A DNA stretch of 64,000 nucleotides from Nitrospinaceae bacterium (GTDB lineage: Bacteria > Nitrospinota > Nitrospinia > Nitrospinales > Nitrospinaceae). Position numbers and translations under genes: made by a program. The stretch lies in NCBI GenBank assembly GCA_965237905.1, contig OZ250172.1, positions 192,001 through 256,000 on the forward strand. The letters run 5' to 3'. Shown one piece after another: positions 7,987 to 60,021 of this stretch (position 1 is the first letter of the stretch; every line of letters begins with the position of its first letter). The notes under the pieces were generated by a model. It saw only the letters and a list, made by a program, of their open reading frames with translations, did no database searches and had not been told where the DNA came from.

Positions 7987-9093
7987 TTAATTTTTTGAAG
8001 GATCGTCGGATGTTTCCTCGGAAGTTTCGAAATCTTTGGGGTCATCTTCCGGGCCGGTAACAATTTCCTTAATATGTTGCCAGAGCGATCCCTTGCCGTC
8101 CAGATTGTATTCAATATCCTCACAGATATGTTCATTGATTTTTTTTTCCACAAACAAATGCGCCTGGTAAATAGCATTCTTGATCGCTTTGGGACTGGAA
8201 CTGCCGTGGGCGATGATGCACACTCCATTGATTCCCAGAAGGGGCGCCCCTCCCTTTTCCGAATAATCGACTTTTTTCTTCAATTGAGTCAAATGAGGTT
8301 TCAGCAACATATAACTCAGCTTGGTCGTCATCCCCGTTTTAAAGAGGGTTTTCAGGCTACCACCGATCATCTCAGCCAGGCTTTCACTGATTTTGAGCGC
8401 CACATTTCCGGTAAAGCCGTCGCACACAATAACGTCGGCGTTGCCCCGGTAAACTTCTTTCCCTTCAATATTGCCGATAAAGTTGATATGGCTTTTCTTG
8501 AGTAGCTTGAAAGCCTCTTTGGTGGTCTCGTTGCCTTTACCATCCTCCTCACCTATACTCAGCAGCCCCACACCGGGATTGTCGTTCCCCAGAATGTATT
8601 TGGCATAAGCGTGGCCCATGATTCCAAATTGAAACAACTGGTTGGTTTTGCAATCCACATTGGCGCCGGCATCCAACAGGATAGAAGTGCCTTTAGCCGT
8701 CGGCAGTTGAACCGCGATGGCAGGCCGATCCACTCCCTTCAAAGGACGTAAAATGATAGTGGAATAGGCGAGGACCGCACCGGTATTGCCGGCACTGACG
8801 AAAGCAGAAGCTTCGCCTTTTTTAACCAGATCCACTCCAATCTTGATGGAGGACTTTTTTTTAGTTCGGATCACCTTGCTGGGGATGTCATTCATCTCGA
8901 CAACTTCATCCGCGTGCTCCACTTCGATGCTCAGCTGTTTCCAGTCCTCGTATTTCTCAAGTTCCTGATGCACCCGATGTGAAATTCCCGTGAGGATAAT
9001 AGGAATCTGAAATTCCCGTGCCGCCAACACAGCGCCTTCAACAATGGCCTCTGGAGCATGGTCTCCCCCCATTGCGTCAACAGCAATTTTCAT
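7987..9093 (-). CDS. plsX: Phosphate acyltransferase PlsX
   Basis: IAVDAMGGDHAP, SAGNTGA, LDAGANVD, CDGFTGNVALK. Confidence 0.96.
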   Translation of the reverse strand: MKIAVDAMGGDHAPEAIVEGAVLAAREFQIPIILTGISHRVHQELEKYEDWKQLSIEVEHADEVVEMNDIPSKVIRTKKKSSIKIGVDLVKKGEASAFVSAGNTGAVLAYSTIILRPLKGVDRPAIAVQLPTAKGTSILLDAGANVDCKTNQLFQFGIMGHAYAKYILGNDNPGVGLLSIGEEDGKGNETTKEAFKLLKKSHINFIGNIEGKEVYRGNADVIVCDGFTGNVALKISESLAEMIGGSLKTLFKTGMTTKLSYMLLKPHLTQLKKKVDYSEKGGAPLLGINGVCIIAHGSSSPKAIKNAIYQAHLFVEKKINEHICEDIEYNLDGKGSLWQHIKEIVTGPEDDPKDFETSEETSDDPSKN

Positions 9094-9277
9094 TTTTGAT
9101 TTTCTTCCTCCGGAAGGTTCAAAGGGGATCCGCCAATTGCCTCTTCAAGATAGAATTGGAGGAAATGAGGTTGTCAAAAACTTGGATCCGGCAATTTATT
9201 CGGGATAAGGTGATACCCCTTTCAATGGTTGAAATTCAAATAAACCGGTCAACCTGGATTGGAATCAATAGATCTAC

Positions 9278-9460
9278 TTAGACTGCTTCAACCTCTAAGA
9301 CTTCTTTATCCTTGTAGTATCCACAGTGAGGACAAACATGGTGAGGCCTTTTAATCTCATGACATTGGGTACATTCACCGTAAGCGGGAACACTTAAATG
9401 ATCATGCGAACGTCTCATTCCTTTTTTTGACTTGGATGTTCTTTTCTTGGGTACTGGCAT
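9278..9460 (-). CDS. rpmF: 50S ribosomal protein L32 (Zn-binding type)
   Basis: MPVPKKRTSKSKKGMRRSH...CTQC...HHVCPHCGYY. Confidence 0.97.
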   Translation of the reverse strand: MPVPKKRTSKSKKGMRRSHDHLSVPAYGECTQCHEIKRPHHVCPHCGYYKDKEVLEVEAV

Positions 9461-46075: not shown

Positions 46076-47739
<1,664 letters not shown>

Positions 47740-49029
47740 TTACCCCATCGCCTTTTTCAAAGCACGGAATTGAGCCGCAATGGTTTGATCGATATCGTCA
47801 TTGGTATGCACGGCGGACATGAATCCCGCCTCGAACTGGGAAGGCGCAATGTAGATTCCCTCTTCCAGCATGGCATTAAAATAGCGCTTGAACAACTCCG
47901 TATCCGAAGTCTTCACCGAATCAAAGCTGACTATTTCCTGATCGGTAAAAAACATCGAAAACATGGAACCGACGCGCGTGAACGTAGCGGTCACTCCCAA
48001 CTTCTTGACGTTCTCTTTAAATCCACTACACAGCCGTTCACTCTTCTTTTCCAGATCCTCATAAACTCCAGATTGGGACAACAGGTTCAGCATTTCGATA
48101 CCAGCCGTCACCGCCAGCGGATTTCCCGACAACGTACCGGCCTGATAAACCGCACCCACCGGCGCGATATGATCCATGATTTCCTTTTTGCCACCGTAGG
48201 CGCCCACCGGCAGTCCGCCGCCGATGATCTTTCCGAGGCAGGTTAAATCGGGTGACACTCCATACAATTTCTGCGCGCCGCCGTAGGCAACGCGGAACCC
48301 GGTAATCACTTCATCGAAGATCAACAGGGCGCCGGACTCGGTAGTGACCTTGCGCAATAGTTCGAGAAATCCCGGTTGCGGCGGTACCACTCCCATGTTG
48401 CCCCCTATCGGCTCCACGATCAGACAGGCGATTTCCTTCCCCATTTTGGCGAACAACTCCTTGACTGCCTGCGCGTCATTATAAGGGATGTTCAAGGTCT
48501 TTTTGGCCAGATCGGAAACGATCCCCGGACAATCCGGCAGGCCCAGCGACAACACCCCCGATCCGGCTTTCACCAACAGGCTGTCGCCATGACCGTGATA
48601 ACAGCCTTCAAACTTGACGATCTTGTCCCGCCCGGTAAACCCGCGGGCCAGCCGGAGTGCGCTGAGCGTCGCTTCGGTACCCGAGCTGACCAGTCGCATG
48701 GTTTCGATGGAGGGCACGGCCGCCACCACTTTTTTCGCCAGCTCGGTTTCCAACTCGGTTGGCGCGCCGAAGCTGGTCCCCAATTGCGCCTGCTTACTGA
48801 CCGCATCCACGATGCGCGGGTGCGCGTGACCAAAGATCATGGGTCCCCAGGAGGAGACGTAATCGATAAATTCGTTGCCGTCGGCATCGGTGATTCGGGG
48901 TCCTTTGGCTTTAGCGATGAACAGGGGATTACCGCCCACCGCCTTGAACGCCCGCACCGGGCTGTTGACGCCGCCGGGGATGACTTTTTGAGCTTCCTGA
49001 AACAGGGACTCCGATTGGGTTCGCTTCAT
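47740..49029 (-). CDS. hemL: Glutamate-1-semialdehyde 2,1-aminomutase
   Basis: [41 protein letters not shown]. Confidence 0.97.
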
Positions 49030-49883
49030 AACTTTCCGAATAAAATTTCCAGATCTTTTTTCAACGCATCCGGTATCAGTTTACGGTCGGTGACAATGGC
49101 GTTTTTGGCCGCCTCGCCGCAGGCACAGGATCGTTTCAGTACCGGTTGCTTTACGATTTCCTTGAGAATGGACTGCGCCAGTTCCACATTCTTGTGCATG
49201 ATTTCCATGACCCCTTCCAGTGTCACCGCCTCCTCTTCCTCGTGCCAGCAATCGTAGTCGGTGGCGAGGGCAATGGTAACATAACAAATCCCCGCTTCAC
49301 GCGCGAGCTTGGCTTCGGTGACGTTGGTCATGCCGATCACTTCGACTCCCCAGCTTCGATACAAAAACGATTCAGCCCGCGTGGAAAACTGAGGGCCTTC
49401 GATGCAGAGATAGGTCCCCCTGGGATGCACGGTTGCCCCGGCCTTTTGACCGGATTCCAGCACCACTTCGTGTAATTCGTCGCAGATGGGATCGGCCAGG
49501 CTGACGTGGCCGACTATCCCGTTACCAAAAAAAGTCGTCTTACGGGCAAAGGTGCGGTCGATAAATTGATCGGGCACCACGATGTGACCGGGAGCGATCT
49601 CTTCCTTCATGCTACCGACGGCGCTGACGGAGATGATCCGCTCCACTCCCAGTTTCTTCATGGCAAAGATGTTGGCGCGGTAGTTGATTTCCGAAGGAGT
49701 GATGCGGTGCCCGACGCCGTGACGCGGCAGAAACGCCATGCGAGTGCCGTCGAGATCGCCCACAATGATTTTGTCCGAGGGATCGCCAAAAGGGGTCTTC
49801 ACGGAAACCGTGTCGACGACTTTGAGGTCCTTCATCGCGTACAAACCGCTTCCGCCGATAACACCCAGAATTTGTTCGGTCAT
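49026..49883 (-). CDS. mtnP: S-methyl-5'-thioadenosine phosphorylase
   Basis: [46 protein letters not shown]. Confidence 0.93.
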
Positions 49884-49898
49884 TTAAAAATTCCCCCC

Positions 49899-49991
49899 GG
49901 AATTGCTGCTAAGGAAAGTGTGTTGGGTAAAAGGTGGGGCCGCTGATTGCTCGACTCACGACTCTACATCTTTGTATTTTATACCATTATC
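49899..49991 (-). repeat. Leader/promoter segment A, copy 1 (upstream of mtnP)
   Basis: GGAATTGC..TAAGGAAAGT...GTTGGGTAA.AGGTGGG...CTCTAC.TCTTT.TATTTTATACC recurs at 53810-53903 and ~55484-55578; contains a minus-strand GGTATAAAAT -10-like motif. Confidence 0.85.
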
Positions 49992-50010
49992 TGCTTTTTT
50001 CAAAGCAAAG

Positions 50011-50072
50011 CTTTGACCGGGGAGCGTCTCAGCTTGAAGCCGACTGTCTCCGAACGGCCAATAGCGGACATT
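50011..50072. repeat. Palindromic element B, right half
   Basis: CTTTGACCGGGGAGCGTCTCAGCTTGAAGCCGACTGTCTCCGAACGGCCAATAGCGGACATT. Confidence 0.9.
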
Positions 50073-50103
50073 CGGCTGAGGAGAGTTTAACAGAAAATGC
50101 CTC

Positions 50104-50307
50104 TTAACTTTTTACCTCAAATGGTTCACATTCCGCTGACGGGAAACACATGTGCTTCAGCTCCAGTGTTGAATAATGCGTGGTCATGCTCACTCCAGAT
50201 TTGTGACCGATCAAAAATTTCCGGTCTTCTTCTGGAACCCGCGCCACTCTCAACCTGGCACCCAATGTGTGCTTTAAATCGTGAACGCGAACAATTTCAA
50301 CCCACAA
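50104..50307 (-). pseudogene. C-terminal remnant of a tyrosine recombinase/integrase
   Basis: VHDLKHT.G.RLR.A.V..EDR..LIGH.S...TTHYS box-II motif (HxxK, H, catalytic Y); no N-terminal part recognisable. Confidence 0.75.
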
Positions 50308-50410
50308 ACCTCAGCGAGGCGAAACTCAACTTGCAACATATCTTACTTGTGTACAAATACAATTCGCAGCTATTGACTATTTTCCCCACCCGCGGTTACA
50401 TAAAAATCAC

Positions 50411-50755
50411 TTGGACCTCTCACCTTCCGAATCCGGCCTGTCCTTGTACCGTCAATTTATCCGTGATATAAAAATCGAAAGCTCCACAAATCCAAGCTCA
50501 TGGTATTACTGGAAGGACTCTGTAATGTATCCCTTGATCTTATTGGTAGTTTTAATTTCTTTCCTTATATGGCTCCCCTACGTTTGTGCAAATTTTTTGC
50601 GCCAACAAAAATCAAATCTGCAAACCAAAATCATTAAAAATATAACAAAAGACGCTGAAGAGGTGGGTGTTGGCATAACCCAGACGACCAACATTTTAAT
50701 TTTTATAAGAAGTGTTTTCACTATGTTAAGACCACTTCCTCATAAAGAATTTTAG
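50411..50755 (+). CDS. Hypothetical membrane protein or gene fragment
   Basis: TTG start, one TM segment, AT-rich; may be a remnant. Confidence 0.35.
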   Translation: MDLSPSESGLSLYRQFIRDIKIESSTNPSSWYYWKDSVMYPLILLVVLISFLIWLPYVCANFLRQQKSNLQTKIIKNITKDAEEVGVGITQTTNILIFIRSVFTMLRPLPHKEF

Positions 50756-50851
50756 GACTGTCGGCTGATGACTAACCTTAAACTCCTAGAAAAAATTACA
50801 GGTGAACCTAATTTAACCAGACTTAAACATGAATCAATGAAAGGACTCGCT

Positions 50852-51997
50852 ATGATTTCTTTAAGTTTTAACGATACGATCAAATACTTGGTTATTTTTT
50901 CAATGTTCTACCTTGGTGGCTGTGCTGGTTACTCAGCCGCCCTTGATACCAGCACCTGTACACAACGAGGTGGAACTGTTCAGGATGTATGTGTGCATAG
51001 GGATCCTTACAACCTCGCAAACTGTCTACGCGTCGAAAGTCAATGTATGGGGTCAATGACCCACGACGAATATAATAAACAAGCGAAGGAAACCCGGAAA
51101 CAAAAGTATAGGGAGGAAGTGTACTCTTCGCCCAATGAAGCGCTAACAAACGCGGCTTACGATGGTGACGCCACAAAGGTGAAAGCCTTATTGGCAAAGG
51201 GCGCCAATATTAACAATAAAGACAAGTATGGTGGGACGGCCTTAATGAATGCGTCTTTGAAAGGACATGAGGCCGTAGTGAAGGTGCTACTGGCAAGAGG
51301 AGCTAAACTCGACCTTCAATCAAGTGATGGCTGGACGGCATTGACGATGGCTTCTAAGAGAGGACATGAGGCTATTGTGAAAATGCTGCTGGCCAAGGGG
51401 GCTGCTGTAAACATTAAATTTCACAGTGGTGGGACGGCAATCGATGTGGCAAAAACTGAAAAAATTCGGCAACTACTCAAGGCGGGTGGGGTTTCAACTC
51501 CTTCTTCGGCGCAAGCATCCTCTTCGGACAATGAAGCACTATTGGCCGCGGCTTGGAATGGTGACGCCGCAAAGGTGAAAGTCTTGTTGAGAAAGGGCGT
51601 CAACATTAACCATACAGATACGCATGAAATAACGGCATTGATGATGGCGTCTCAGAAAGGGCATGAAGCTGTGGTGAAGATACTGCTGGCAAAAGGAGCT
51701 AAACTCGAGCTTCTATCAACTCTTGGCTGGACTGCTTTGAGGATGGCGTCTGCGACAGGACAAGAGGCCATAGTGAAGATGCTGCTGGCCAAGGGCGCCA
51801 AGATTGACACTCAAGATGGGATGGGTGGTGAGACGGCCTTAATGTTTGCGTCTCGGTTAGGGCATGAGGCCGTAGTGAAGATCCTGCTGGACAAAGGAGC
51901 AGACATAAGCCTTAAAGATAACTTTGGAAAGACGGCCCTCAATAAGGCAAATACTGAAAAAGTTTGGAAACTGCTCAAGGCGGCTGGGGCAAAGTAA
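50852..51997 (+). CDS. Ankyrin-repeat lipoprotein with Cys-rich N-terminal domain and two ankyrin modules
   Basis: AAGGA RBS, LGGC lipobox, repeated G.TALM.AS..GHEAVVK.LLAKGA. Confidence 0.92.
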   Translation: MISLSFNDTIKYLVIFSMFYLGGCAGYSAALDTSTCTQRGGTVQDVCVHRDPYNLANCLRVESQCMGSMTHDEYNKQAKETRKQKYREEVYSSPNEALTNAAYDGDATKVKALLAKGANINNKDKYGGTALMNASLKGHEAVVKVLLARGAKLDLQSSDGWTALTMASKRGHEAIVKMLLAKGAAVNIKFHSGGTAIDVAKTEKIRQLLKAGGVSTPSSAQASSSDNEALLAAAWNGDAAKVKVLLRKGVNINHTDTHEITALMMASQKGHEAVVKILLAKGAKLELLSTLGWTALRMASATGQEAIVKMLLAKGAKIDTQDGMGGETALMFASRLGHEAVVKILLDKGADISLKDNFGKTALNKANTEKVWKLLKAAGAK

Positions 51998-52019
51998 TTC
52001 TTCACTCGTCACACAAACC

Positions 52020-52090
52020 AAAGGCTTTCGTCGGTGACGCCTGATAGGTGCAAGCCTTGTTAGAAAAATGACGCCAACATTGACCATCAA
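52020..52090 (+). pseudogene. Degenerate ankyrin-repeat remnant
   Basis: GGTGACGCC...AGGTGCAAGCCTTGTTAGAAAAATGACGCCAACATTGACCAT resembles the GDAA.VKALLEKGANINH coding sequence of the flanking genes, with indels and stops. Confidence 0.55.
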
Positions 52091-52198
52091 GAATTTTAGG
52101 ATAGTCGGATGATGACTAACCTTAAACTGCTTCTGAATATATTTACAGGTGAACCTAATTTAACCAGACTTAAACATGAATCAATGAAAGGACTCGCT

Positions 52199-52795
52199 AT
52201 GATTTCTTTAAGTTTTAACGATACGATCAAATACTTGGTTATTTGTTCAATATTTTACCTTGGTGGCTGCGCTGGTATGTCATCCTCCATGGATACCTTT
52301 CCTTCTTCGGGGCAAGCGTCCTCTTCGGACAATGAAGCACTAGTTGTCGCGGCTAAAAATGGTGACGCCGCAAGGGTGAAAGCCTTGTTGGAAAAGGGCG
52401 CCAACGTTAACTATCTAAAGAAGAATGATGTGTCGGTCTTAATGTATGCGTCTCAAGATGGGCATGCTGCCGTAGTAAATATCCTGCTGGCAAAGGGCGC
52501 CAACGTTAACCATAAAGATAATATTAGCTGGACAGCATTGATGATAGCGTCTGCATCCGGGCATGAGGCCATAGTGAAGGTGCTTCTGGCAAAGGGCGCC
52601 AACGTTAACAATAGAGATAAAAATGGCGGGACAGCTTTATATTATGCGTCTTTTAAAGGGCAGGAAACAGTGGTGAAGATGTTGTTAGCCAAGGGGGCAG
52701 ACGTAAGCACTAAAACTTCTAAAGGTAAGACAGCCCTCAGTCAGGCAAAAACTGAAAAAATTCGGCAAATGCTCAAGGCGGCTGGAGCAAAGTAA
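52199..52795 (+). CDS. Ankyrin-repeat lipoprotein (tandem paralog)
   Basis: Near-identical leader and signal peptide to 50852; about five ankyrin repeats; shared 3' end GCAAAGTAATTCTTCACTC. Confidence 0.92.
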   Translation: MISLSFNDTIKYLVICSIFYLGGCAGMSSSMDTFPSSGQASSSDNEALVVAAKNGDAARVKALLEKGANVNYLKKNDVSVLMYASQDGHAAVVNILLAKGANVNHKDNISWTALMIASASGHEAIVKVLLAKGANVNNRDKNGGTALYYASFKGQETVVKMLLAKGADVSTKTSKGKTALSQAKTEKIRQMLKAAGAK

Positions 52796-52941
52796 TTCTT
52801 CACTCTAAAGCCTCTAACTATCAAAACCAGTTATTTTTAAAACCGTGTATGTCTTCAAATGAATCTGGACAGGAGTTGGAAAATTTCTAGAGGTACATTT
52901 GGCTTATAGTCCTTCGATAATTTTTTTAAGTTTAAGTTAAG

Positions 52942-52993
52942 AAACCCTGGTATTGAGACTTTGTTGTCTACTCAGTTCCAGGGTTTTTCTTTT
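52942..52993 (+). terminator. Hairpin/terminator downstream of the ankyrin genes
   Basis: AAACCCTGG...CCAGGGTTT followed by TTCTTTT. Confidence 0.55.
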
Positions 52994-53039
52994 ATTTGGT
53001 TTCAGCAAAGTTTATTTATGCTTTACAAAGGATCTGGCA

Positions 53040-53098
53040 AACGTCTGCTTTGGGTCGATTCCAGCCATTTAAATTCCTAACTGAGACACACCCTTTGA
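53040..53098. repeat. Palindromic element B, left half
   Basis: AACGTCTGCTTTGGGTCGATTCCAGCCATTTAAATTCCTAACTGAGACACACCCTTTGA, after which similarity stops. Confidence 0.9.
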
Positions 53099-53119
53099 GG
53101 GAGCAGGCGTAAATCAGCC

Positions 53120-53326
53120 TTATATTCTCACAAAATAGGGTAGAGCCACTAAAACCGTGCCTGCAATTACAAGCACGTATACGTTCGATATAAAATACGG
53201 AATGACAAATAGAGCGATGCCGGTCATTAGTGGAACTACCGCCTTTTGTTTTTTCCCATATGTAAAGAATCCGAGGCCAAGTGCTCCGAACAGCATTCCC
53301 CACATAAGCAGCGATGTACCTTCCAT
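53120..53326 (-). CDS. Small three-TM membrane protein (cassette-like cargo)
   Basis: WGMLFGALGLGFFTYGKKQK..VPL.TGIALFVIPYF; hydrophobic 68 aa. Confidence 0.75.
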   Translation of the reverse strand: MEGTSLLMWGMLFGALGLGFFTYGKKQKAVVPLMTGIALFVIPYFISNVYVLVIAGTVLVALPYFVRI

Positions 53327-53903
53327 AATGACTTACCCATTGTTCTTAGCGGATCCAGCCCTTGCTCTCGGCTCGCTTCGAATACCAGATCAAAAACGCC
53401 GTCACCACCAACTGCATCAGAACACCCATCCAAATTTCGAAGGAACTAAATCCGGCCACGCCAAATATATGCATCATTGACACAATCACGCCAAGGAGCG
53501 ACGCGATTAATACATAGAACGCGGCCGACTTCCTGAGCAGAAGCAGGAGACAGCCCAACGTTCCGCCGAAAACGGCTATCGCAAAAGCTGCGGTGGCCCA
53601 TGCGGGTCGGCCTTCGATTATCGGGCGATACGACTCAGGAAACGAGGCGAGCGAGTCTGCATTCATCTGTGCGAAGTAATTGATGACGCCCATAACATTA
53701 AAAATAAGTGTGACAACGCAAATTATCCAAAAACTCCAATGAACACCACCAACGTTTTCATCGTTCATTACATCCTCCTTCTGCCTGTAACTCCACAAGC
53801 AGTTCATCTGGAATTGCAAATAAGGAAAGTGAGTTGGGTAACAGGTGGGGTCGTTGATCAACCCGCTGACGATTCTACTTCTTTATATTTTATACCCTTG
53901 CCC
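53326..53903. repeat. ~575-bp direct repeat, copy 1 (membrane gene plus segment A)
   Basis: Nearly identical to 55007-55578. Confidence 0.95.
53346..53768 (-). CDS. Four-TM membrane protein, copy 1
   Basis: AAGGAGG RBS; HWSFWIIC...PAWATAAFAIAVFGGTLGCLLLLLRK...AESKGWIR. Confidence 0.85.
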   Translation of the reverse strand: MNDENVGGVHWSFWIICVVTLIFNVMGVINYFAQMNADSLASFPESYRPIIEGRPAWATAAFAIAVFGGTLGCLLLLLRKSAAFYVLIASLLGVIVSMMHIFGVAGFSSFEIWMGVLMQLVVTAFLIWYSKRAESKGWIR

Positions 53904-53990
53904 AAGCACAAGAAACCCCGCTCTAGTCGGGGCCTCATCCTGGTCCTCGGTTCTTCTTGTTATGCGCTGAGTCGAGGGGAAGGGCGGACC

Positions 53991-54479
53991 TTATCTGGAC
54001 CTGTGCGCTTCCAGCTCGATCTCGATCATGAACCCGGGCAGGGCGAGCCCTTTGACCTCGAGCCAGGTTCCGGTCGGAAACTGTTTTGTGTAGATCGAGT
54101 TACGATACGAAGCGACCTCGAGAAACTTCGCCATGTTGGTCGTATAGACGTTCTCAACCATCACGTCGTCGAAGGTATAGCCGTAGTGCTTCAGAACCTT
54201 ATCCAGATCGGAGTAAGCGTTTTTCATCTGCTGCTCCAAATCGCCGACAGCTGTCGGGTTGCCCTCATCATCCATGCTCACGGCGCCCGAGATCTTGATG
54301 TCATCACCGATCTTCACGGCATGCGTGTAGCCGTAGGCCTTTTCGACCTCCGGTCGCAAAAGGAAATACTCCGGCATTTCTTTCGCCAGCACGATCGTCT
54401 CGTCGGATTCCGGGCCGGGGCAGCCGGACAGGAAAGCCAGGAAGAGTGTTGCAAGGACGAGCAGTGATTTTTTGTTCAT
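53991..54479 (-). CDS. RidA/YjgF-family lipoprotein
   Basis: LSGC lipobox; YGYTHAVKIGD...SGAVS...FPTGTWLEVKGLALPGFMIEIELEA; stop abuts GCGGACC. Confidence 0.85.
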   Translation of the reverse strand: MNKKSLLVLATLFLAFLSGCPGPESDETIVLAKEMPEYFLLRPEVEKAYGYTHAVKIGDDIKISGAVSMDDEGNPTAVGDLEQQMKNAYSDLDKVLKHYGYTFDDVMVENVYTTNMAKFLEVASYRNSIYTKQFPTGTWLEVKGLALPGFMIEIELEAHRSR

Positions 54480-54502
54480 TGTTTTTCTCCTCAGATTTGT
54501 CG

Positions 54503-54619
54503 AATGTCCGCTTTGGGTCGATTCCAGCCACTTAAATTCTTAACTGAGACACACCCTTTAACTGGATAGTGTGCCCCAGTTTAAAACCGGGTGTCTCCAA
54601 ACGATCTAAAGCAGTCACT
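54503..54619. repeat. Palindromic element B, full copy
   Basis: AATGTCCGCTTTGGGTCG...AACTGAGACACACCC-TTTAAC-...CTCCAAACGATCTAAAGCAGTCACT; overlaps the cupin stop codon. Confidence 0.9.
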
Positions 54620-54992
54620 CAATATTATCAACCACTTGGCTTGGATAGGACATTTCCAGCACGACACATCCATCCTCTGATTTGAATGGTCCATGTATTT
54701 CACCGGGTGGTCGGCTTGCGTAGTCTCCAGCTTCAAGCCATTGATCAAAAGCAGTATCATAAATTCTGCCTTCCAGTATCATTATTTCTTCCGGGTAATC
54801 ATGACTTTTCTCACCAAATGCGGATGTATCTGCACCGGGTTTGAATCGGGTCAGCCTTGTATAGTCACCGGTTTCATGATCAATGGCTAGAGTCAACTCC
54901 TCCGCATACTCTTCCATACCGTCAATTGGACTCCAAAGAGATTTATTTTCAATCTGCAATGGGTTCCAGTATGTTTTAGTTGTCTTAGCCAT
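54615..54992 (-). CDS. ChrR-like cupin domain protein
   Basis: YTRLTRFKPG...HDYPEEIMILEG.IYD...AGDYASRPPGEIHGPF. Confidence 0.85.
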   Translation of the reverse strand: MAKTTKTYWNPLQIENKSLWSPIDGMEEYAEELTLAIDHETGDYTRLTRFKPGADTSAFGEKSHDYPEEIMILEGRIYDTAFDQWLEAGDYASRPPGEIHGPFKSEDGCVVLEMSYPSQVVDNIE

Positions 54993-55006
54993 TATATATT
55001 CTCCAT

Positions 55007-55578
55007 TAATGACTTACCCATTGTTCTTAGCGGATCCAGCCCTTGCTCTCGGCTCGCTTCGAATACCAGATCAAAAACGCCGTCACCACCAACTGCATCA
55101 GAACACCCATCCAAATTTCGAAGGAACTAAATCCGGCCACGCCAAATATATGCATCATTGACACAATCACGCCAAGGAGCGACGCGATTAATACATAGAA
55201 CGCGGCCGACTTCCTGAGCAGAAGCAGGAGACAGCCCAACGTTCCGCCGAAAACGGCTATCGCAAAAGCTGCGGTGGCCCATGCGGGTCGGCCTTCGATT
55301 ATCGGGCGATACGACTCAGGAAACGAGGCGAGCGAGTCTGCATTCATCTGTGCGAAGTAATTGATGGCGCCCATAACATTAAAAATAAGTGTGACAACGC
55401 AAATTATCCAAAAACTCCAATGAACACCACCAACGGTCTCATCGTTCATTACGTCCTCCTTCTGCCTGTAACTCAGTTCATCTGAAATTGCAAATAAGGA
55501 AAGTTTTGTTGGGTAAAAGGTGGGCTCGTTGATCAACCCGCTGACGACTCTACTTCTTTATACTTTATACCCTTGCCC
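55007..55578. repeat. ~575-bp direct repeat, copy 2
   Basis: Nearly identical to 53326-53903. Confidence 0.95.
55027..55449 (-). CDS. Four-TM membrane protein, copy 2
   Basis: Differs from copy 1 at only two residues I can see (DEN/DET, MGV/MGA). Confidence 0.85.
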   Translation of the reverse strand: MNDETVGGVHWSFWIICVVTLIFNVMGAINYFAQMNADSLASFPESYRPIIEGRPAWATAAFAIAVFGGTLGCLLLLLRKSAAFYVLIASLLGVIVSMMHIFGVAGFSSFEIWMGVLMQLVVTAFLIWYSKRAESKGWIR

Positions 55579-55591
55579 GCTTTTAGCAAAG

Positions 55592-55654
55592 CTTTGACCG
55601 GGGTGTGTCTCAATTTGAAGGCGACTGTCTCCAAACGACCAAAAGCGGACCTTA
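55592..55654. repeat. Palindromic element B, right half
   Basis: CTTTGACCGGGGTGTGTCTCAATTTGAAGGCGACTGTCTCCAAACGACCAAAAGCGGACC-TTA (TTA is the stop of the next gene). Confidence 0.9.
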
Positions 55655-56089
55655 ACTAGTTACGCTGGCCCACAGATAAACAACAAACGACAACCCGCTG
55701 ACTATGCTCCGTACCCAATGCCGGGGCGCCCATTGATTTAGCAAGTCTTCAGTTTCCGAATCCGAGCGTTGCGCATTTGGATCCAACAACTGATCGTTGA
55801 TCGGCTTGAGCACGACTACCGTGAACGGAATGATGAAAACCAGAAGCGCGGCTCCGATGGCCCAAAGAGGATCGCGTAATAGATACCACTGAATGAGTCC
55901 CGCCAGTGTACCGCCGACCGCTGAGAATATTTGCATAGGCGCGGCGAGATTGTACATCGGAGGAAAAAACTTGGCCGCAAACGGAACGCCTGCTTTCATT
56001 GAGGCCGGATGTTGTGCAACAGAGATGTAAACTGCTGCCCCAAAGAATGTTCCGCACAGAAAAAGCGCGATGATCTCAACGAAAATCAT
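55652..56089 (-). CDS. DUF1772 (anthrone oxygenase-like) membrane protein
   Basis: FFGAAVYISVAQHPA...F.PMY..AAPMQ...IPFTVVVLKPINDQLL...LL.QW...HWVRS. Confidence 0.82.
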   Translation of the reverse strand: MIFVEIIALFLCGTFFGAAVYISVAQHPASMKAGVPFAAKFFPPMYNLAAPMQIFSAVGGTLAGLIQWYLLRDPLWAIGAALLVFIIPFTVVVLKPINDQLLDPNAQRSDSETEDLLNQWAPRHWVRSIVSGLSFVVYLWASVTS

Positions 56090-56131
56090 TTGTATTTACC
56101 CGGTTAGTGATTTTACGAAATTGAAACTCAT

Positions 56132-56246
56132 AATGTCTGATTTGGGTCGATTCCAGCCATTTAAATTCCTAACTGACTCACACCCTTTGACCGGATAGTG
56201 CCTCAGTTTGAAGCCGACTGTCTCCAAACAGTCTAGAACGGACGCT
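56132..56246. repeat. Palindromic element B, full copy
   Basis: AATGTCTGATTTGGGTCGATTCCAGCCATTTAAATTCCTAACTGACTCACACCCTTTGACCGGATAGTGCCTCAGTTTGAAGCCGACTGTCTCCAAACAGTCTAGAACGGACGCT. Confidence 0.9.
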
Positions 56247-56280
56247 TCACTACTTAGGGAGATTTTGGAAACCATGAAGT

Positions 56281-56895
56281 TTATCTCTTACGCTCCCATC
56301 GCTTAACATAGTCGTTTATATACCAGTCAAAGAGCTTCTTTAGACTTTCTTCGGAGAAAAGTGATTCATCATATTTTGTCCCGCCTTGTTTTTCTGCGCA
56401 ATCCAGTCTCATGTCTTGAGTATCGGGTCCTTCAGAACCTATGTAACCAAAAACGGGGTTTAATTTTTCGGCAACACCTTTACAACATTCAGCAAATTTT
56501 TGTAGCTTCTTGAAATCAGCTTGGCTGGAATCTTCCGTGAACCCCCAGAGAACATCTTCGCAAATACTGACGGAAACACCAGCATTATCAAAATCAACCA
56601 CAAGAGACAAGTATGTGTATGCATCGACCAACCAGCCGATAAAATTGACTATACAATGGCTTACTTTGTGACCCTCTGTATAAGCCAAAAACTCTTCCAT
56701 CTCTCCCGCAGAAGCGACTTTATCTGGAACGATCGGATCATCACCATAGGCCAACAAAGGTTCTGCTTCTAACAGGGCAAATCCGCGGCTGTTAATTATT
56801 TTTATTAGCGTCAGTAAGCTTCCAACTGGAAGTTCTTTGCATGACAACAAACATTCTAAGTCTGCACCTCCGATAGATGGCTTACGGTGTTCCAT
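56281..56895 (-). CDS. Hypothetical acidic protein (cassette-like cargo)
   Basis: 204-aa ORF between element copies; no motif confidently recognised. Confidence 0.65.
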   Translation of the reverse strand: MEHRKPSIGGADLECLLSCKELPVGSLLTLIKIINSRGFALLEAEPLLAYGDDPIVPDKVASAGEMEEFLAYTEGHKVSHCIVNFIGWLVDAYTYLSLVVDFDNAGVSVSICEDVLWGFTEDSSQADFKKLQKFAECCKGVAEKLNPVFGYIGSEGPDTQDMRLDCAEKQGGTKYDESLFSEESLKKLFDWYINDYVKRWERKR

Positions 56896-56925
56896 GGTTA
56901 TGGCCTTACAATTTCCATAGGATTG

Positions 56926-56936
56926 AATGTCCGCCT
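56926..56936. repeat. Element B left-end stub
   Basis: AATGTCCGCCT immediately adjacent to the stop codon at 56937. Confidence 0.5.
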
Positions 56937-57620
56937 TTAAGGCAACTCATTAATTGTTAAGAATCTTTCTGTATCCTCATCACCTAAAAGTAATACAGGT
57001 TCAGGGCCACCATCGAAATTTTTTATTGCGGCAATTAAAAAGTGCTTAGTTTGAGAACGAAGAAATGAATGAGCTTTAATAGTGACTATATGTTTACCAT
57101 CACCTGCCCATGATTTATCTTTATTTTCCCCCCAGTATGGAGAACCTACTGGTATTTCATTTGAAACACGCCTTGGGAAAGTAGCGATTCTGTATTTTTT
57201 ACATAGATTATCTTCAACTAAATCAAATTTATCTTGGGTCAAGATAAATTTACTAACAGCATGATCAATTGAAGCATATTGAGTTACTTGAATTGAAAGA
57301 CGGACATTTTTAATTCTTGTTACAAATTGCAAGCCACAAATTGCCTGATAATAATATTCATTATCTTGAAACTTAGATCCTAATACAAAATGATCTACAA
57401 TAAATATCTTTTGTTTACTTTTGAGCCATTCCCTAAAATTTGATTGCTCATTAAATAGGTCTGAATATATAACACCTATTAAAAAAAATAATGAAACAAC
57501 AAATAGCCATATCCAAGGAAGATTTGCATATTTTGAGTTAAAGTGTTGCGTTAGCCATTGCTGCGATAGCCACACAGTAAGCGTAATAAAGGTAGAAATA
57601 CCTGGCAATGCATACTTCAA
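56937..57620 (-). CDS. AT-rich hypothetical protein with two N-terminal TM helices
   Basis: 227-aa ORF, visibly more AT-rich than asd next door; GAGGAG RBS upstream. Confidence 0.7.
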   Translation of the reverse strand: MKYALPGISTFITLTVWLSQQWLTQHFNSKYANLPWIWLFVVSLFFLIGVIYSDLFNEQSNFREWLKSKQKIFIVDHFVLGSKFQDNEYYYQAICGLQFVTRIKNVRLSIQVTQYASIDHAVSKFILTQDKFDLVEDNLCKKYRIATFPRRVSNEIPVGSPYWGENKDKSWAGDGKHIVTIKAHSFLRSQTKHFLIAAIKNFDGGPEPVLLLGDEDTERFLTINELP

Positions 57621-57645
57621 TATTGGCTCCTCATAATAAGGAAGA

Positions 57646-58659
57646 TTATCTACGGATCAAAACCTCGGCAATCTGGATGGCGTTCAGGGCGGCGCCTTTG
57701 CGTAGATTATCCGCCACAATCCACAGGTTGACGGCACGCGGATTATCGAGGTCGGCGCGGATGCGTCCGACCATCACCTCATCCCTGCCGGCGGCGTCCA
57801 CCGCCAGGGGATATTCGCCTTTCCCCGGAGCGTCCACCAGGCGCACCCCCGGCGCTGAACTCAAAATGTTTTTGAGTTCCTTCACATCTATTACTTGTTC
57901 CGTTTCCACATTGACGGCCTCGGAATGCGCATAAAACACGGGCACGCGAACCGTGGTCGGCGACACTTGAATAGAATCGTCTTCCAGGATTTTCCGGGTC
58001 TCGTTCACCATCTTCATCTCTTCCTTGGTATAACCCGTATCCAGAAACGTATCGATGTGCGGCAGGCAATTGAAAGCGATCTGATGGGGATAGACATCTG
58101 TCTCAGCCGGCTGTTCGTTCAGGACCTGACTGCTTTGCGCTTTCAACTCTTCGATGGCGCTTTGACCCGTGCCCGACACGGACTGGTAAGTCGACACCAC
58201 CACCCGTTTGATCGTGTAGCGGTCATGAATCGGCTTCAACGCCACCACCATCTGGATGGTGGAGCAATTGGGGTTGGCGATGATTCCCGGGTTGTTGCCA
58301 ATGGCGTGCGGGTTGATCTCCGGCACCACCAGCGGAATGCCCTTTTCCATGCGGAAGGCACTGCTGTTATCGATCACCCGGCACCCCGCTTTTGCGGCGA
58401 TGGGGCAAAATTCCAAGCTGACCGATCCCCCGGCGGAGAACAGGGCGATATCCAGTCCTGCAAAGGAATCTGCTTTCAATTCCTGCACGGTAATTTTCTT
58501 GCCATTGAATTCCACCTGCTTGCCGGCCGAACGCGAAGAAGCCAGCGGCACCAGTTTGCCGACGGGAAACTTCCGCTCTTCCAGAATGGACAGCAGAGTC
58601 CGGCCCACCGCTCCGGTGGCTCCGACGACTGCGACATCATATTTAGTCTTCTTTTTCAC
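57646..58659 (-). CDS. asd: Aspartate-semialdehyde dehydrogenase
   Basis: VVGATGAVG, DNSSAFRM, ANPNCSTIQ, STYQSVSG, DNLRKGAALNA. Confidence 0.97.
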   Translation of the reverse strand: MKKKTKYDVAVVGATGAVGRTLLSILEERKFPVGKLVPLASSRSAGKQVEFNGKKITVQELKADSFAGLDIALFSAGGSVSLEFCPIAAKAGCRVIDNSSAFRMEKGIPLVVPEINPHAIGNNPGIIANPNCSTIQMVVALKPIHDRYTIKRVVVSTYQSVSGTGQSAIEELKAQSSQVLNEQPAETDVYPHQIAFNCLPHIDTFLDTGYTKEEMKMVNETRKILEDDSIQVSPTTVRVPVFYAHSEAVNVETEQVIDVKELKNILSSAPGVRLVDAPGKGEYPLAVDAAGRDEVMVGRIRADLDNPRAVNLWIVADNLRKGAALNAIQIAEVLIRR

Positions 58660-59747
58660 TACAACTGTTTCTCCAATTCTTCAGCCACCCGGTCTCCCAT
58701 AGCCGCGCAACCGATTTCTTTTCCGCTATTGGACAGGATGTCTCTGGTCCGGTAACCCTGCCCCAATACCTCATCAACTACCTTTTCTAATATAGTATTT
58801 ACATCCTCTAAGCTAAAGGAATACTTGAACATCATACCCACCGACAGAATCGTCGCCAGCGGGTTGGCGATGTCCTTTCCGGCGATATCCGGCGCGCTTC
58901 CATGAATAGGTTCGTACATGGCGGTTTTGCCCCCAAGGCTGGCCGAGGGCAACATGCCGATGGAGCCGGTCAGCATCGACGCCTGGTCGCTCAGGATATC
59001 CCCGAACATGTTGGTGGTCACGATGACGTCGAACTGCTTGGGATTGCGCACCAACTGCATGGCGCAATTGTCCACATACATGTGGGACAGCGTGATGTCC
59101 TTGTAATCTTCATGAACTTTGGTGACGATCTCGCGCCACAGGCCGGTGCATTCCAAAACATTGGCCTTGTCGATGGAGTAAACGTTTTTATCCCGCTTGC
59201 CCGCCACGTCGAAGGCCACCCTGGCGATGCGCTCTATCTCCGGCTCCGTGTAGACCAGCGTGTTGACGCCCTTGCGGGTGCCATCTGCCAGGGTTTCCAC
59301 GCCGCGCGGCTCGCCGAAATAGATGCCGCCGGTCAATTCCCGGACCACCATGATATCCAGTCCCTCCACTACTTCCGGCTTGAGGGTCGATGCCTCCGTC
59401 AGCGGAGCGAAGATTTTGGCGGGGCGCAGATTGGCGAACAATCCCAGGCTGGAACGCAGTCCCAGCAAAGCCCGCTCCGGCCGCAGGGAAAAATCGATCG
59501 TCTCCCACTTCGGCCCTCCGACCGCGCCCAGCAATACCGCATCGGCAGACAGCGCGGCTTTGAGCGTATCTTTCGGCAGAGGATGACCGTCGGCCTCGTA
59601 CCCGGCACCGCCCACGGGAGCTTCTATCAATTTCAGCTTGAGATTCTTTTTGCTCTCGACGATTTTCAGGATTTTTACGGCCTCGCGAATCACTTCGGGA
59701 CCGATGCCGTCTCCGGGTAACACGGTAATATTGAATTTCTGACTCAT
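58659..59747 (-). CDS. leuB: 3-isopropylmalate dehydrogenase
   Basis: [42 protein letters not shown]. Confidence 0.96.
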
Positions 59748-59908
59748 CAAAAAAACCCTTCTAAACGCGTTGAATGGATTTGAAAAAGAAGAGCATTATA
59801 CCCGAAAACCCCGTCGCCCTCTACCGAGGGAGGAAACTTGCTATCGGTTAACGGCGAACGACGATCATAGAGCGCAATTCAGAATTTTAAAATTATCCAC
59901 GGCGATTC

Positions 59909-60021
59909 GTAGCCCGATAAATCGGGCAACTACAAAAGCAAAAGGAAGAATCCCCCCAGCCCCCTTTACAAGGGGGAGCTTTAGACCACCCCTCACCCTG
60001 CCCTCTCCCAGGGAGAGAGGA
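59909..60021. repeat. Cluster of REP-like palindromes
   Basis: Minus-strand GTAG-TTGCCCGA-TTTA-TCGGGC (59909-59933); TCCCCCCAGCCCCCTTTACAAGGGGGAG; CCCTCACCCTGCCCTCTCCCAGGGAGAGAGG. Confidence 0.65.

Follow-up and report, generated by a model that had tools for sequence, protein, structure and literature searches.

To our knowledge, integrons and the dif modules of Acinetobacter are the only well-described systems in which single genes move as modules bounded by recombination sites. Here we analyse an array of small genes and palindromic repeats that lies between mtnP and asd, at positions 49899 to 57640 of a 64,000-nucleotide stretch of a Nitrospinaceae bacterium genome (assembly GCA_965237905.1, contig OZ250172.1, positions 192,001 to 256,000), referred to below as the window. 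An initial annotation, made from the letters alone, had described the repeat as a ~115-bp hairpin-forming recombination site and the interval as a gene-shuffling system other than a canonical integron; this idea is partly supported, being largely upheld with the exception of the hairpin. We found that the repeat is better read as three nested parts, namely an A site, an inner palindrome and a B site, than as one hairpin site. Judging from sequence comparison, we give an even chance to the explanation that we favour, in which the paired inverted 30-bp sites mark the borders of modules that are exchanged between loci and species, likely by conservative site-specific recombination. The evidence that the modules are mobile is strong, and the exchange enzyme is likely to be a site-specific recombinase other than the integron integrase.

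The layout is closest to that of the Acinetobacter dif modules; it is integron-like in outcome, and no integron integrase was found. The dif modules have two-armed sites with a 6-bp spacer, inverted neighbouring sites, and modules of two classes that alternate, empty ones among them (PMC13141974). On that description, both systems place one to a few genes between ~28-30-bp sites in which two arms, one of them well conserved and the other variable, enclose a 6-bp spacer. In both, neighbouring sites are inverted and modules with the conserved arms inside alternate with modules that have the variable arms inside, the second kind being represented here by 55-bp empty stretches, and the same module occurs in different contexts. 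Unlike the dif modules of that account, the site described here bears no likeness to the dif of its host, its arrays are chromosomal rather than carried on a Rep_3 plasmid and occur in several phyla, and in the genus of the window the paired sites are separated by an additional inner palindrome.

With integron cassettes, attC sites and clusters of attC sites lacking an integrase (CALINs), the array shares a series of small genes, co-oriented and for the most part orphan, with imperfect palindromes between them, stop codons that overlap the palindrome, and a content that varies among relatives at a fixed chromosomal spot. It differs from integrons in having no IntI and in its symmetric 30-bp site, as against attC sites of 55-140 bp with R and L boxes. 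It also has half elements at the array ends, cargo between inverted sites, and no attI or Pc platform.

Anatomy of the repeat

The genome that holds the window (3.09 Mb) is called G000 below, related genomes are numbered G001-G010 and so on, and individual loci carry L-numbers. When the copies were aligned with instances from other taxa, each half of the repeat was seen to carry a 30-bp site in which a 6-bp centre is flanked by 12-bp inverted arms. Type A consists of AATGTCCGCTTT followed by GGGTCG and a variable arm (at 53040, 54503 and 56132). Type B consists of a variable arm followed by CGGCCA or CGACCA and then A(A/T)AGCGGAC(A/C)TT (at 50043 and 55624, with degenerate examples at 54590 and 56217), and is an inverted A with its own flavour of centre. 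In a full copy, A and B enclose a 55-bp stretch which is itself a 15-7-15 palindrome (AACTGAGACACACCC, 7 bp, GGGTGTGTCTCA); this inner palindrome is specific to the genus.

The order within a module is B, cargo, A, with the conserved arm of each site towards the cargo, and the window accordingly reads B, cargo, A, a short spacer, B, cargo, A. Where modules abut, the A site and the B site of the junction together make up what had been annotated as a full copy of the repeat. In the seven modules mapped in G000, gene starts lie at the A arm and gene ends at the B arm; the only exception is the pair of ankyrin genes in the first module of the window. The true B site of the window RidA module is missing, and its place is taken by D6b, a copy of the mtnP promoter/leader.

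The coordinates first given for the two full copies, the left half and the right halves all hold (Table 1; the right halves start at 50004 or 50011 and at 55585 or 55592), and both the 18-bp terminal inverted repeat and the inner stem are present in the copies. A repeat finder recovered the left 69 nt in three copies (53040, 54503 and 56132; 83-100% identical) and the right part in three to four (50004/50024, 54571, 55585/55605 and 56178/56198). Four cargo stop codons had been said to abut or overlap element ends (open reading frames (ORFs) 53991-54479, 54615-54992, 55652-56089 and 56937-57620), and this was confirmed: three overlap or abut a B-type arm, one of these being a relic arm within the RidA module, and the stop codon of the 56937 ORF sits just past a relic A arm at 56926. 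This last arm had been listed as a stub of the repeat (AATGTCCGC); it is present and is read here as a relic A arm that keeps 11 of 12 bases and has no centre. The other stub, GCGGACC at 53984-53990, is likewise present and belongs inside the RidA module, where it is kept in all three copies of the module.

The hairpin fared less well. Against shuffled sequences, single-strand folding of copy 1 gave z = -1.8 and -2.4 and that of copy 2 gave z = +0.3 and -1.1, which does not bear out a long single-strand hairpin, and the inner stems of full copy 2 differ without compensating changes and are poorly matched. The ~115-bp unit also has to be given up as the working unit in favour of the inverted pair of 30-bp sites, and other phyla use the 30-bp site alone.

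Profile searches of the whole of G000 found strong left and right halves, six of each. Allowing at most two mismatches to either of the two 18-mer types, we counted 15 half-sites in the genome and 0, 0, 0, 0 and 1 in five whole-genome shuffles, and the repeat is therefore not due to chance. The half-sites fall into about seven loci (the window, 559-562 kb, 663 kb, 848 kb, 1359-1363 kb, 2670-2671 kb and 2821 kb), and since they cluster in this way they do not represent a dispersed miniature inverted-repeat transposable element (MITE), whose genome-wide scatter had been named as the finding that would speak against gene shuffling. Short intergenic palindromes, and doublets of them able to form long hairpins, are features that the array has in common with MITEs, with repetitive extragenic palindromic (REP) sequences and bacterial interspersed mosaic elements (REP/BIME), and with REPIN/RAYT. 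It differs from REP/RAYT and MITEs in having no Y1 transposase, in its ~15 half-sites compared with hundreds, in carrying genes, and in a sequence that is common to several phyla. REP sequences are, as far as known, species-specific. The 117-nt copy was matched in 16 of 41 related genomes, G000 included, and in eight of the ten that belong to the same genus. An Rfam search of 47000-60000 returned no meaningful family (two matches lay far under gathering scores), and no tRNA genes were found in the window.

Exchange of modules between loci and species

The RidA module gave the clearest case of mobility. Its block of 606 nt, comprising a terminator, the RidA gene and a ribosome-binding site, is 99.3-99.8% identical among the window, a second locus of G000 (2670412 onward) and the mtnP locus of G007; the window block is 99.3% identical to the 2670-kb copy and 99.5% to the copy in G007. 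The housekeeping genes of G000 and G007 are only 83.7% (mtnP) and 80.2% (asd) identical. Near-identity of the module in two species that have diverged by 16-20% in their core genes shows that its traffic is recent. The borders of the block coincide with site centres. The G007 and 2670-kb blocks agree in their B centre and arm (CGGCCA CAAGCGGACA) and in their A arm; the module brings its site-proximal arms along, and the far-side arms are different in each of the three contexts.

Contigs of four metagenome runs (X1, X3, X5 and X10, compared at 90% likeness; single contigs with short-sided joints, and as such weak hints) place single modules in other surroundings, for example the RidA block after a B arm and not after D6b. 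The gene for the four-transmembrane (4-TM) protein, RidA, the DUF1772 gene and an integrase remnant recur there in other contexts, and the distal arm of the RidA module differs again in single contigs of two of the runs.

The interval between the phosphoenolpyruvate (PEP) mutase gene and proS allowed an empty site to be compared with occupied ones. In G001 (contig C35) it is uninterrupted, and the PEP mutase frame extends a few codons further. G000, G004, G005 and G008 have an insertion at the same point, which supplies a new stop codon. These four species share only the 63-74-bp ends of the insertion; the intervening 2.0-2.9 kb show no detectable similarity in any of the six pairs. In G000 the unit is flanked on both sides by CCTCGGAA, an 8-bp direct repeat that is present as a single copy in the empty site, and this flanking repeat is degenerate in G004, G005 and G008. 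G001 has two PEP mutase 3' ends, one (L063, on C35) with the empty site and one (L064, on C16) with an L half, which could reflect a strain mixture in the assembly or a duplication.

Direct repeats of this kind, together with unit tips that are inverted repeats, and full copies that resemble tip-to-tip joints, would also be produced by non-autonomous terminal inverted repeat transposons, that is, MITE-like units with passenger genes and a transposase encoded elsewhere. We consider this very improbable, as only about seven loci occur in 3.09 Mb, different species have an insertion at the same two loci, with fixed ends and differing cargo, the flanking repeat is degenerate in three other species, and no linked transposase was found.

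Comparison of the mtnP-asd interval among relatives had been set beforehand as a test of the shuffling idea. The gap measures ~0.75 kb in G006, 4.0 kb in G001, 5.0 kb in G008 and 7.8 kb in G000, and its gene content varies rather than being invariant, with R beside the mtnP leader and L beside asd retained. Of the 11 window cargo proteins (mtnP and asd excluded), only four recur in any locus of 16 relatives, namely RidA, 4-TM, cupin and the 68-aa protein. The motif TTTGAYS is found at the joint between D6, the 90-nt mtnP promoter/leader sequence, and R in eight sequences and at the joint between L and asd in four. Taken over both loci, the repeat thus marks the borders of modules that differ between species and recur elsewhere almost unchanged, as the shuffling idea had it.

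An ORF of 643-694 aa adjoins mtnP in G007, G004, G010 and G009 (L039, L041, L042 and L046) and is not found there in G000, G001, G005, G006 and G008. It divides the D6 leader in two in G007, G004 and G009; in G010 the locus stops within the ORF.

The exact position of these direct repeats beside the inner stems at the joints between element and chromosome (CCTCGGAA at PEP mutase/proS, TTTGAYS at mtnP-asd) is also what tandem accretion of small integrative elements would give. On this account the full 115-bp copy would be an attP-like joint with crossover at its inner 15-7-15 palindrome, and a resident P4-type integrase, acting in trans, would bind the conserved outer 18-mers as arm-type sites through its N-terminal arm-binding domain. 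Arrays would lengthen each time a further element integrated at the same 7-bp core, and an attP x attB reaction would yield the order R, cargo, L seen at both loci. Integrase-less integrative islets (satellite-type islands) form tandem arrays at one att site. The present array resembles these in its R, cargo, L order, its attP-like joints, a decayed integrase in one unit and the short direct repeats at the outer joints; it is unlike them in that its hotspot is not a tRNA gene, in that the intact relatives of the decayed integrase use tRNA sites, and in that cargo is exchanged within fixed ends. Accretion leaves this swap of cargo inside fixed ends at PEP mutase/proS unexplained. The RidA module, moreover, moves, taking only the outer arms, into sites that have no inner palindrome (such as the mini sites at 2670 kb of G000), the arrays of other phyla make do with the 30-bp site, and the inner stems of junction 2 are badly matched. 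We regard accretion as rather unlikely.

The 2670-kb copy of the RidA module has surroundings of its own. A yifB/comM-type Mg-chelatase gene of G000 is split there (C1:2652414-2672374), with its C-terminal part at L066:11414-12406 and its N-terminal part at L065:7538-8374. The ~18 kb within the split gene hold a 575-aa serine recombinase, a truncated tyrosine recombinase, a nucleotidyltransferase like those of cyclic-oligonucleotide-based antiphage signalling systems (CBASS; SMODS/DncV-like) and this second RidA module with its mini sites. The stretch looks like an island integrated into comM, and a gene for a QatA-like ATPase adjoins it just outside the C-terminal part.

Taxonomic range of the site, candidate enzymes and proposed mechanism

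The 18-mer AAYGTCCGCTTTGGGTCG was counted on contigs of one genome per species. More than 132 exact stretches from several phyla were present among the matches listed, which set a lower bound on the taxonomic range, with ~35 expected by chance on an arithmetic estimate; the records include Sphingomonadales, Xanthomonadales, Pseudomonas, Caulobacter, Betaproteobacteria, Nitrospinaceae, Cyclobacteriaceae, Aggregatilineales and others. The 12 bases that follow the 18-mer, which lie outside the search pattern, match the inverted left arm with at most four mismatches in 53 of 82 instances from other species, compared with 22 of 5000 random 12-mers, and the six bases preceding the 18-mer show no conservation in the same 82 instances. 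Since the following arm mirrors the left arm and the preceding six bases are not conserved, the unit common to these taxa is the 12-6-12 site.

In several genomes the site forms arrays with a spacing of 0.3-2.3 kb between small co-oriented ORFs, and 20 of 28 array ORFs in genomes other than G000 have no Pfam match. A Gammaproteobacteria metagenome-assembled genome (MAG; L148) uses the same two flavours as the window, with centres GGGTCG and CGGCCA, in mixed A/B orders. An Rfam/RNA scan of six loci with the short site gave tRNA only, a 56-nt query with the short site found three weak, unannotated matches in a plasmid collection and nothing else, and viral contigs held three exact site matches only. 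Word searches of the literature, made mainly at abstract level, retrieved no description of the site, which is not proof that it is unpublished.

Genes for staphylococcal-nuclease-like and Endonuclease_NS proteins stand at or in arrays both at 2671-2673 kb of G000 (L065:7162-7614 and 8393-9319) and in an unrelated Gammaproteobacteria MAG, G044 (L209:15449-16168 and L210:1474-2049). This could be coincidence or recurrent cargo.

All 18 bases are identical across phyla and over a range of 33-64% G+C. A sequence-specific reader is favoured because such identity is hard to keep otherwise, and this bears on the possibility that the repeats are passive, being hairpins of a REP-like or stabilising kind that accompany accessory genes; modules would then be reshuffled after transformation by homologous or illegitimate recombination between the short repeats, and no dedicated enzyme would be involved. 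Passive palindromes would fit the failure to find a dedicated enzyme, IntI or a Y1 HUH transposase, as well as serine recombinases not being found in two of five site-bearing genomes and some module borders lying away from sites. The asymmetric 6-bp centre and the fixed A and B types common to G000 and the Gammaproteobacteria MAG count against them, as do the missing T-run after the stem and the lack of an Rfam match, and 12-18 bp is short for RecA-dependent exchange. We find this explanation improbable.

A broader proposal, which we put forward as tentative, is that of a multi-phylum cassette system without an integron integrase, in which interchangeable modules of one gene each, in Pseudomonadota, Nitrospinota, Bacteroidota and Chloroflexota, would be bordered by a 30-bp 12-6-12 site of two flavours (GGGTCG and CGGCCA). 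The enzyme at work would be a recombinase yet to be described or a repurposed housekeeping enzyme, and the genus of the window would add a composite three-site junction.

No integron integrase was detected in support of an integron origin. The best match to TIGR02249 in G000 scored 90.6 bits against a cut-off of 265, and none of five other site-bearing genomes had a match above the cut-off, in line with the original view that this is not a canonical integron; the attC boxes RYYYAAC/GTTRRRY are also missing from the copies, as judged by eye. A CALIN, in which divergent attC sites were once served by IntI, would account for small, co-oriented, mostly orphan genes, stop codons overlapping the palindrome and a content that varies between species. 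It is hardly credible given the integrase result, the symmetric conserved unit of 30 bp without visible boxes, and the frequency of the site in named Alphaproteobacteria records. We know of no report of integrons in Alphaproteobacteria.

Other enzymes were considered in turn. The Y1 HUH transposase family PF01797 had no matches in G000, the same search being positive in 6 of 14 genomes as a control. Only one serine recombinase is present in G000 (587 aa, in an island), and none was found in two of the five other site-bearing genomes. For XerC/XerD, the only dif-like 28-mer of G000, GGTTCCCATAACATATATTATGTCAACT, lies at C1:124576-124603, close to where the cumulative GC skew peaks (110 kb) and at a distance of ~120 kb from the array, and shares no arm with the site. 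Binding by XerC/XerD is unlikely because the site has no likeness to this dif.

A 390-aa integrase with an Arm-DNA-bind_3 domain is encoded at 2776617-2777786 of G000 (L219:6618-7790), with no tRNA nearby. It is syntenic in all six genus genomes examined (G000, G001, G002, G003, G008 and G010), is matched at E <= 1e-30 in eight of ten, and diverges faster than its neighbour, with 64-81% amino acid identity vs 91-95% for the adjoining leucine-rich repeat (LRR) gene. Its synteny and its presence in eight of ten genomes of the genus count in favour of accretion by a resident integrase.

Returning to module exchange by site-specific recombination, the following mechanism may be envisaged. The A and B sites would exchange strands at their 6-bp centre or right next to it; tyrosine recombinases act in this way at core sites of such shape. 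By analogy with the Acinetobacter dif modules, a cargo module together with the adjacent empty module, lying between like-oriented sites, could leave as a circle and enter at another site, with the enzyme acting in trans. The inner palindrome is probably a second, genus-specific core by which a first unit would enter a naive chromosomal site. We take the short direct repeats right beside it at both loci (CCTCGGAA and TTTGAYS) as fitting such a first entry, and the 390-aa integrase, with its arm-binding domain, is one candidate for this step.

Several observations weigh against this reading. Inverted sites around cargo would lead to inversion, not excision, in a simple two-site reaction; a 570-bp duplication (4-TM and D6) has no site at its 3' end; and the window RidA copy is joined to D6b where a B site is expected. 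The sequences compared showed no circle, inversion or excision product, and the metagenome joints, being short-sided and compared at 90% likeness, are weak. No recombinase could be tied to the site, and none of the 45 ORFs that flank arrays in two other genomes is one, apart from an IS240-type DDE transposase 3.4 kb off. The tyrosine recombinase remnant of the array is probably not the enzyme of this system: its intact relatives (356-377 aa, 70-83% identical, the three closest adjoining a tRNA end) hold the site at none of ten loci. No intact integrase stands beside an att site here, only this remnant of 63-67 aa. Lastly, the 390-aa integrase has no close relative in four of the five other, distant site-bearing genomes, and so cannot serve the 30-bp site generally.

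Gene content of the interval and significance

The features of the interval are listed in Table 1. The ORFs of the original cargo list between mtnP and asd are all present; the list had missed the integrase remnant, the two plus-strand ankyrin genes and the D6 repeat.

Table 1. Features between mtnP and asd, in window coordinates
Feature	Position	Strand	Basis
D6a, native mtnP promoter/leader; chromosomal flank of the array	49899-49988	-	conservation upstream of mtnP
R1 right half: inner stem and B site 50043-50072 (variable arm, CGGCCA, ATAGCGGACATT)	50004-50072	+	
Phage-type tyrosine recombinase, C-terminal remnant, 63-67 aa; cargo	50104-50307	-	frame 2 translation
Two paralogous ankyrin-repeat genes (50768-51997, 52109-52795); cargo of first module	50768-52795	+	Pfam Ank families
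L1 left half: A site 53040-53069 and inner stem	53040-53098	+	
68-aa ORF (53120-53326) and 4-TM copy a (53346-53768)	53120-53768	-	
D6b, mtnP promoter/leader copy upstream of 4-TM copy a	53810-53899	-	
RidA module: terminator-like site 53912-53936, RidA lipoprotein gene 53991-54479, internal relic arm 53984-53990	53897-54502	-	Pfam Ribonuc_L-PSP
Full junction 1: A site 54503-54532, inner palindrome (7-bp spacer), degenerate B site 54590-54619	54503-54619	+	
Cupin gene (54615-54992) and 4-TM copy b (55027-55449)	54615-55449	-	
D6c, second mtnP promoter/leader copy	55485-55574	-	
R2 right half with B site 55624-55653	55585-55654	+	
DUF1772/anthrone-oxygenase-like gene; one-gene module, B (55624) to A (56132)	55652-56089	-	Pfam
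Full junction 2: A site 56132-56161, inner palindrome, degenerate B site 56217-56246	56132-56246	+	
Orphan 204-aa gene	56281-56895	-	no Pfam match
Relic A arm AATGTCCGCCTT, without centre	56926-56937	+	
Orphan 227-aa gene adjoining asd	56937-57620	-	no Pfam match; Atlas scores all <0.9

Pfam families were assigned to mtnP, asd, RidA, the cupin and the DUF1772/anthrone-oxygenase-like protein. Nothing was returned by Pfam for the 68-aa, 204-aa and 227-aa ORFs, and one 4-TM copy gave two sub-cut-off matches only. Relatives of both the 68-aa ORF and the 4-TM protein occur in G002, and of the 4-TM protein also in G001 and G008. For the orphan 204-aa protein, a weak lead comes from its language-model Atlas score of 0.93 against a cluster that has PF15600 (Imm64, polymorphic-toxin immunity) in 43% of its members.

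The D6 sequence upstream of mtnP is conserved in G001, G005, G006 and G008 and partly in G004, G007 and G009. The best promoter-like match of the region, TTGAAA-16-TAAAAT at 50003-49976, falls within this promoter/leader, and the two additional copies of D6 accompany the duplicated 4-TM gene. The ankyrin genes share a 90% identical upstream region and a signal/lipoprotein-like N-terminus (50741-50950 vs 52085-52297, repeats D5 and D12), a pattern that we read from their sequences as recent tandem paralogy within the first module.

If module exchange is correct, the logic of integrons and dif modules would be at work through another site, in a lineage of marine nitrite oxidisers and in well over 100 other species, without the enzymes known from those two systems. 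Should the enzyme be found, the system would constitute a further route by which accessory genes are traded, and a new pair of recombination site and enzyme.

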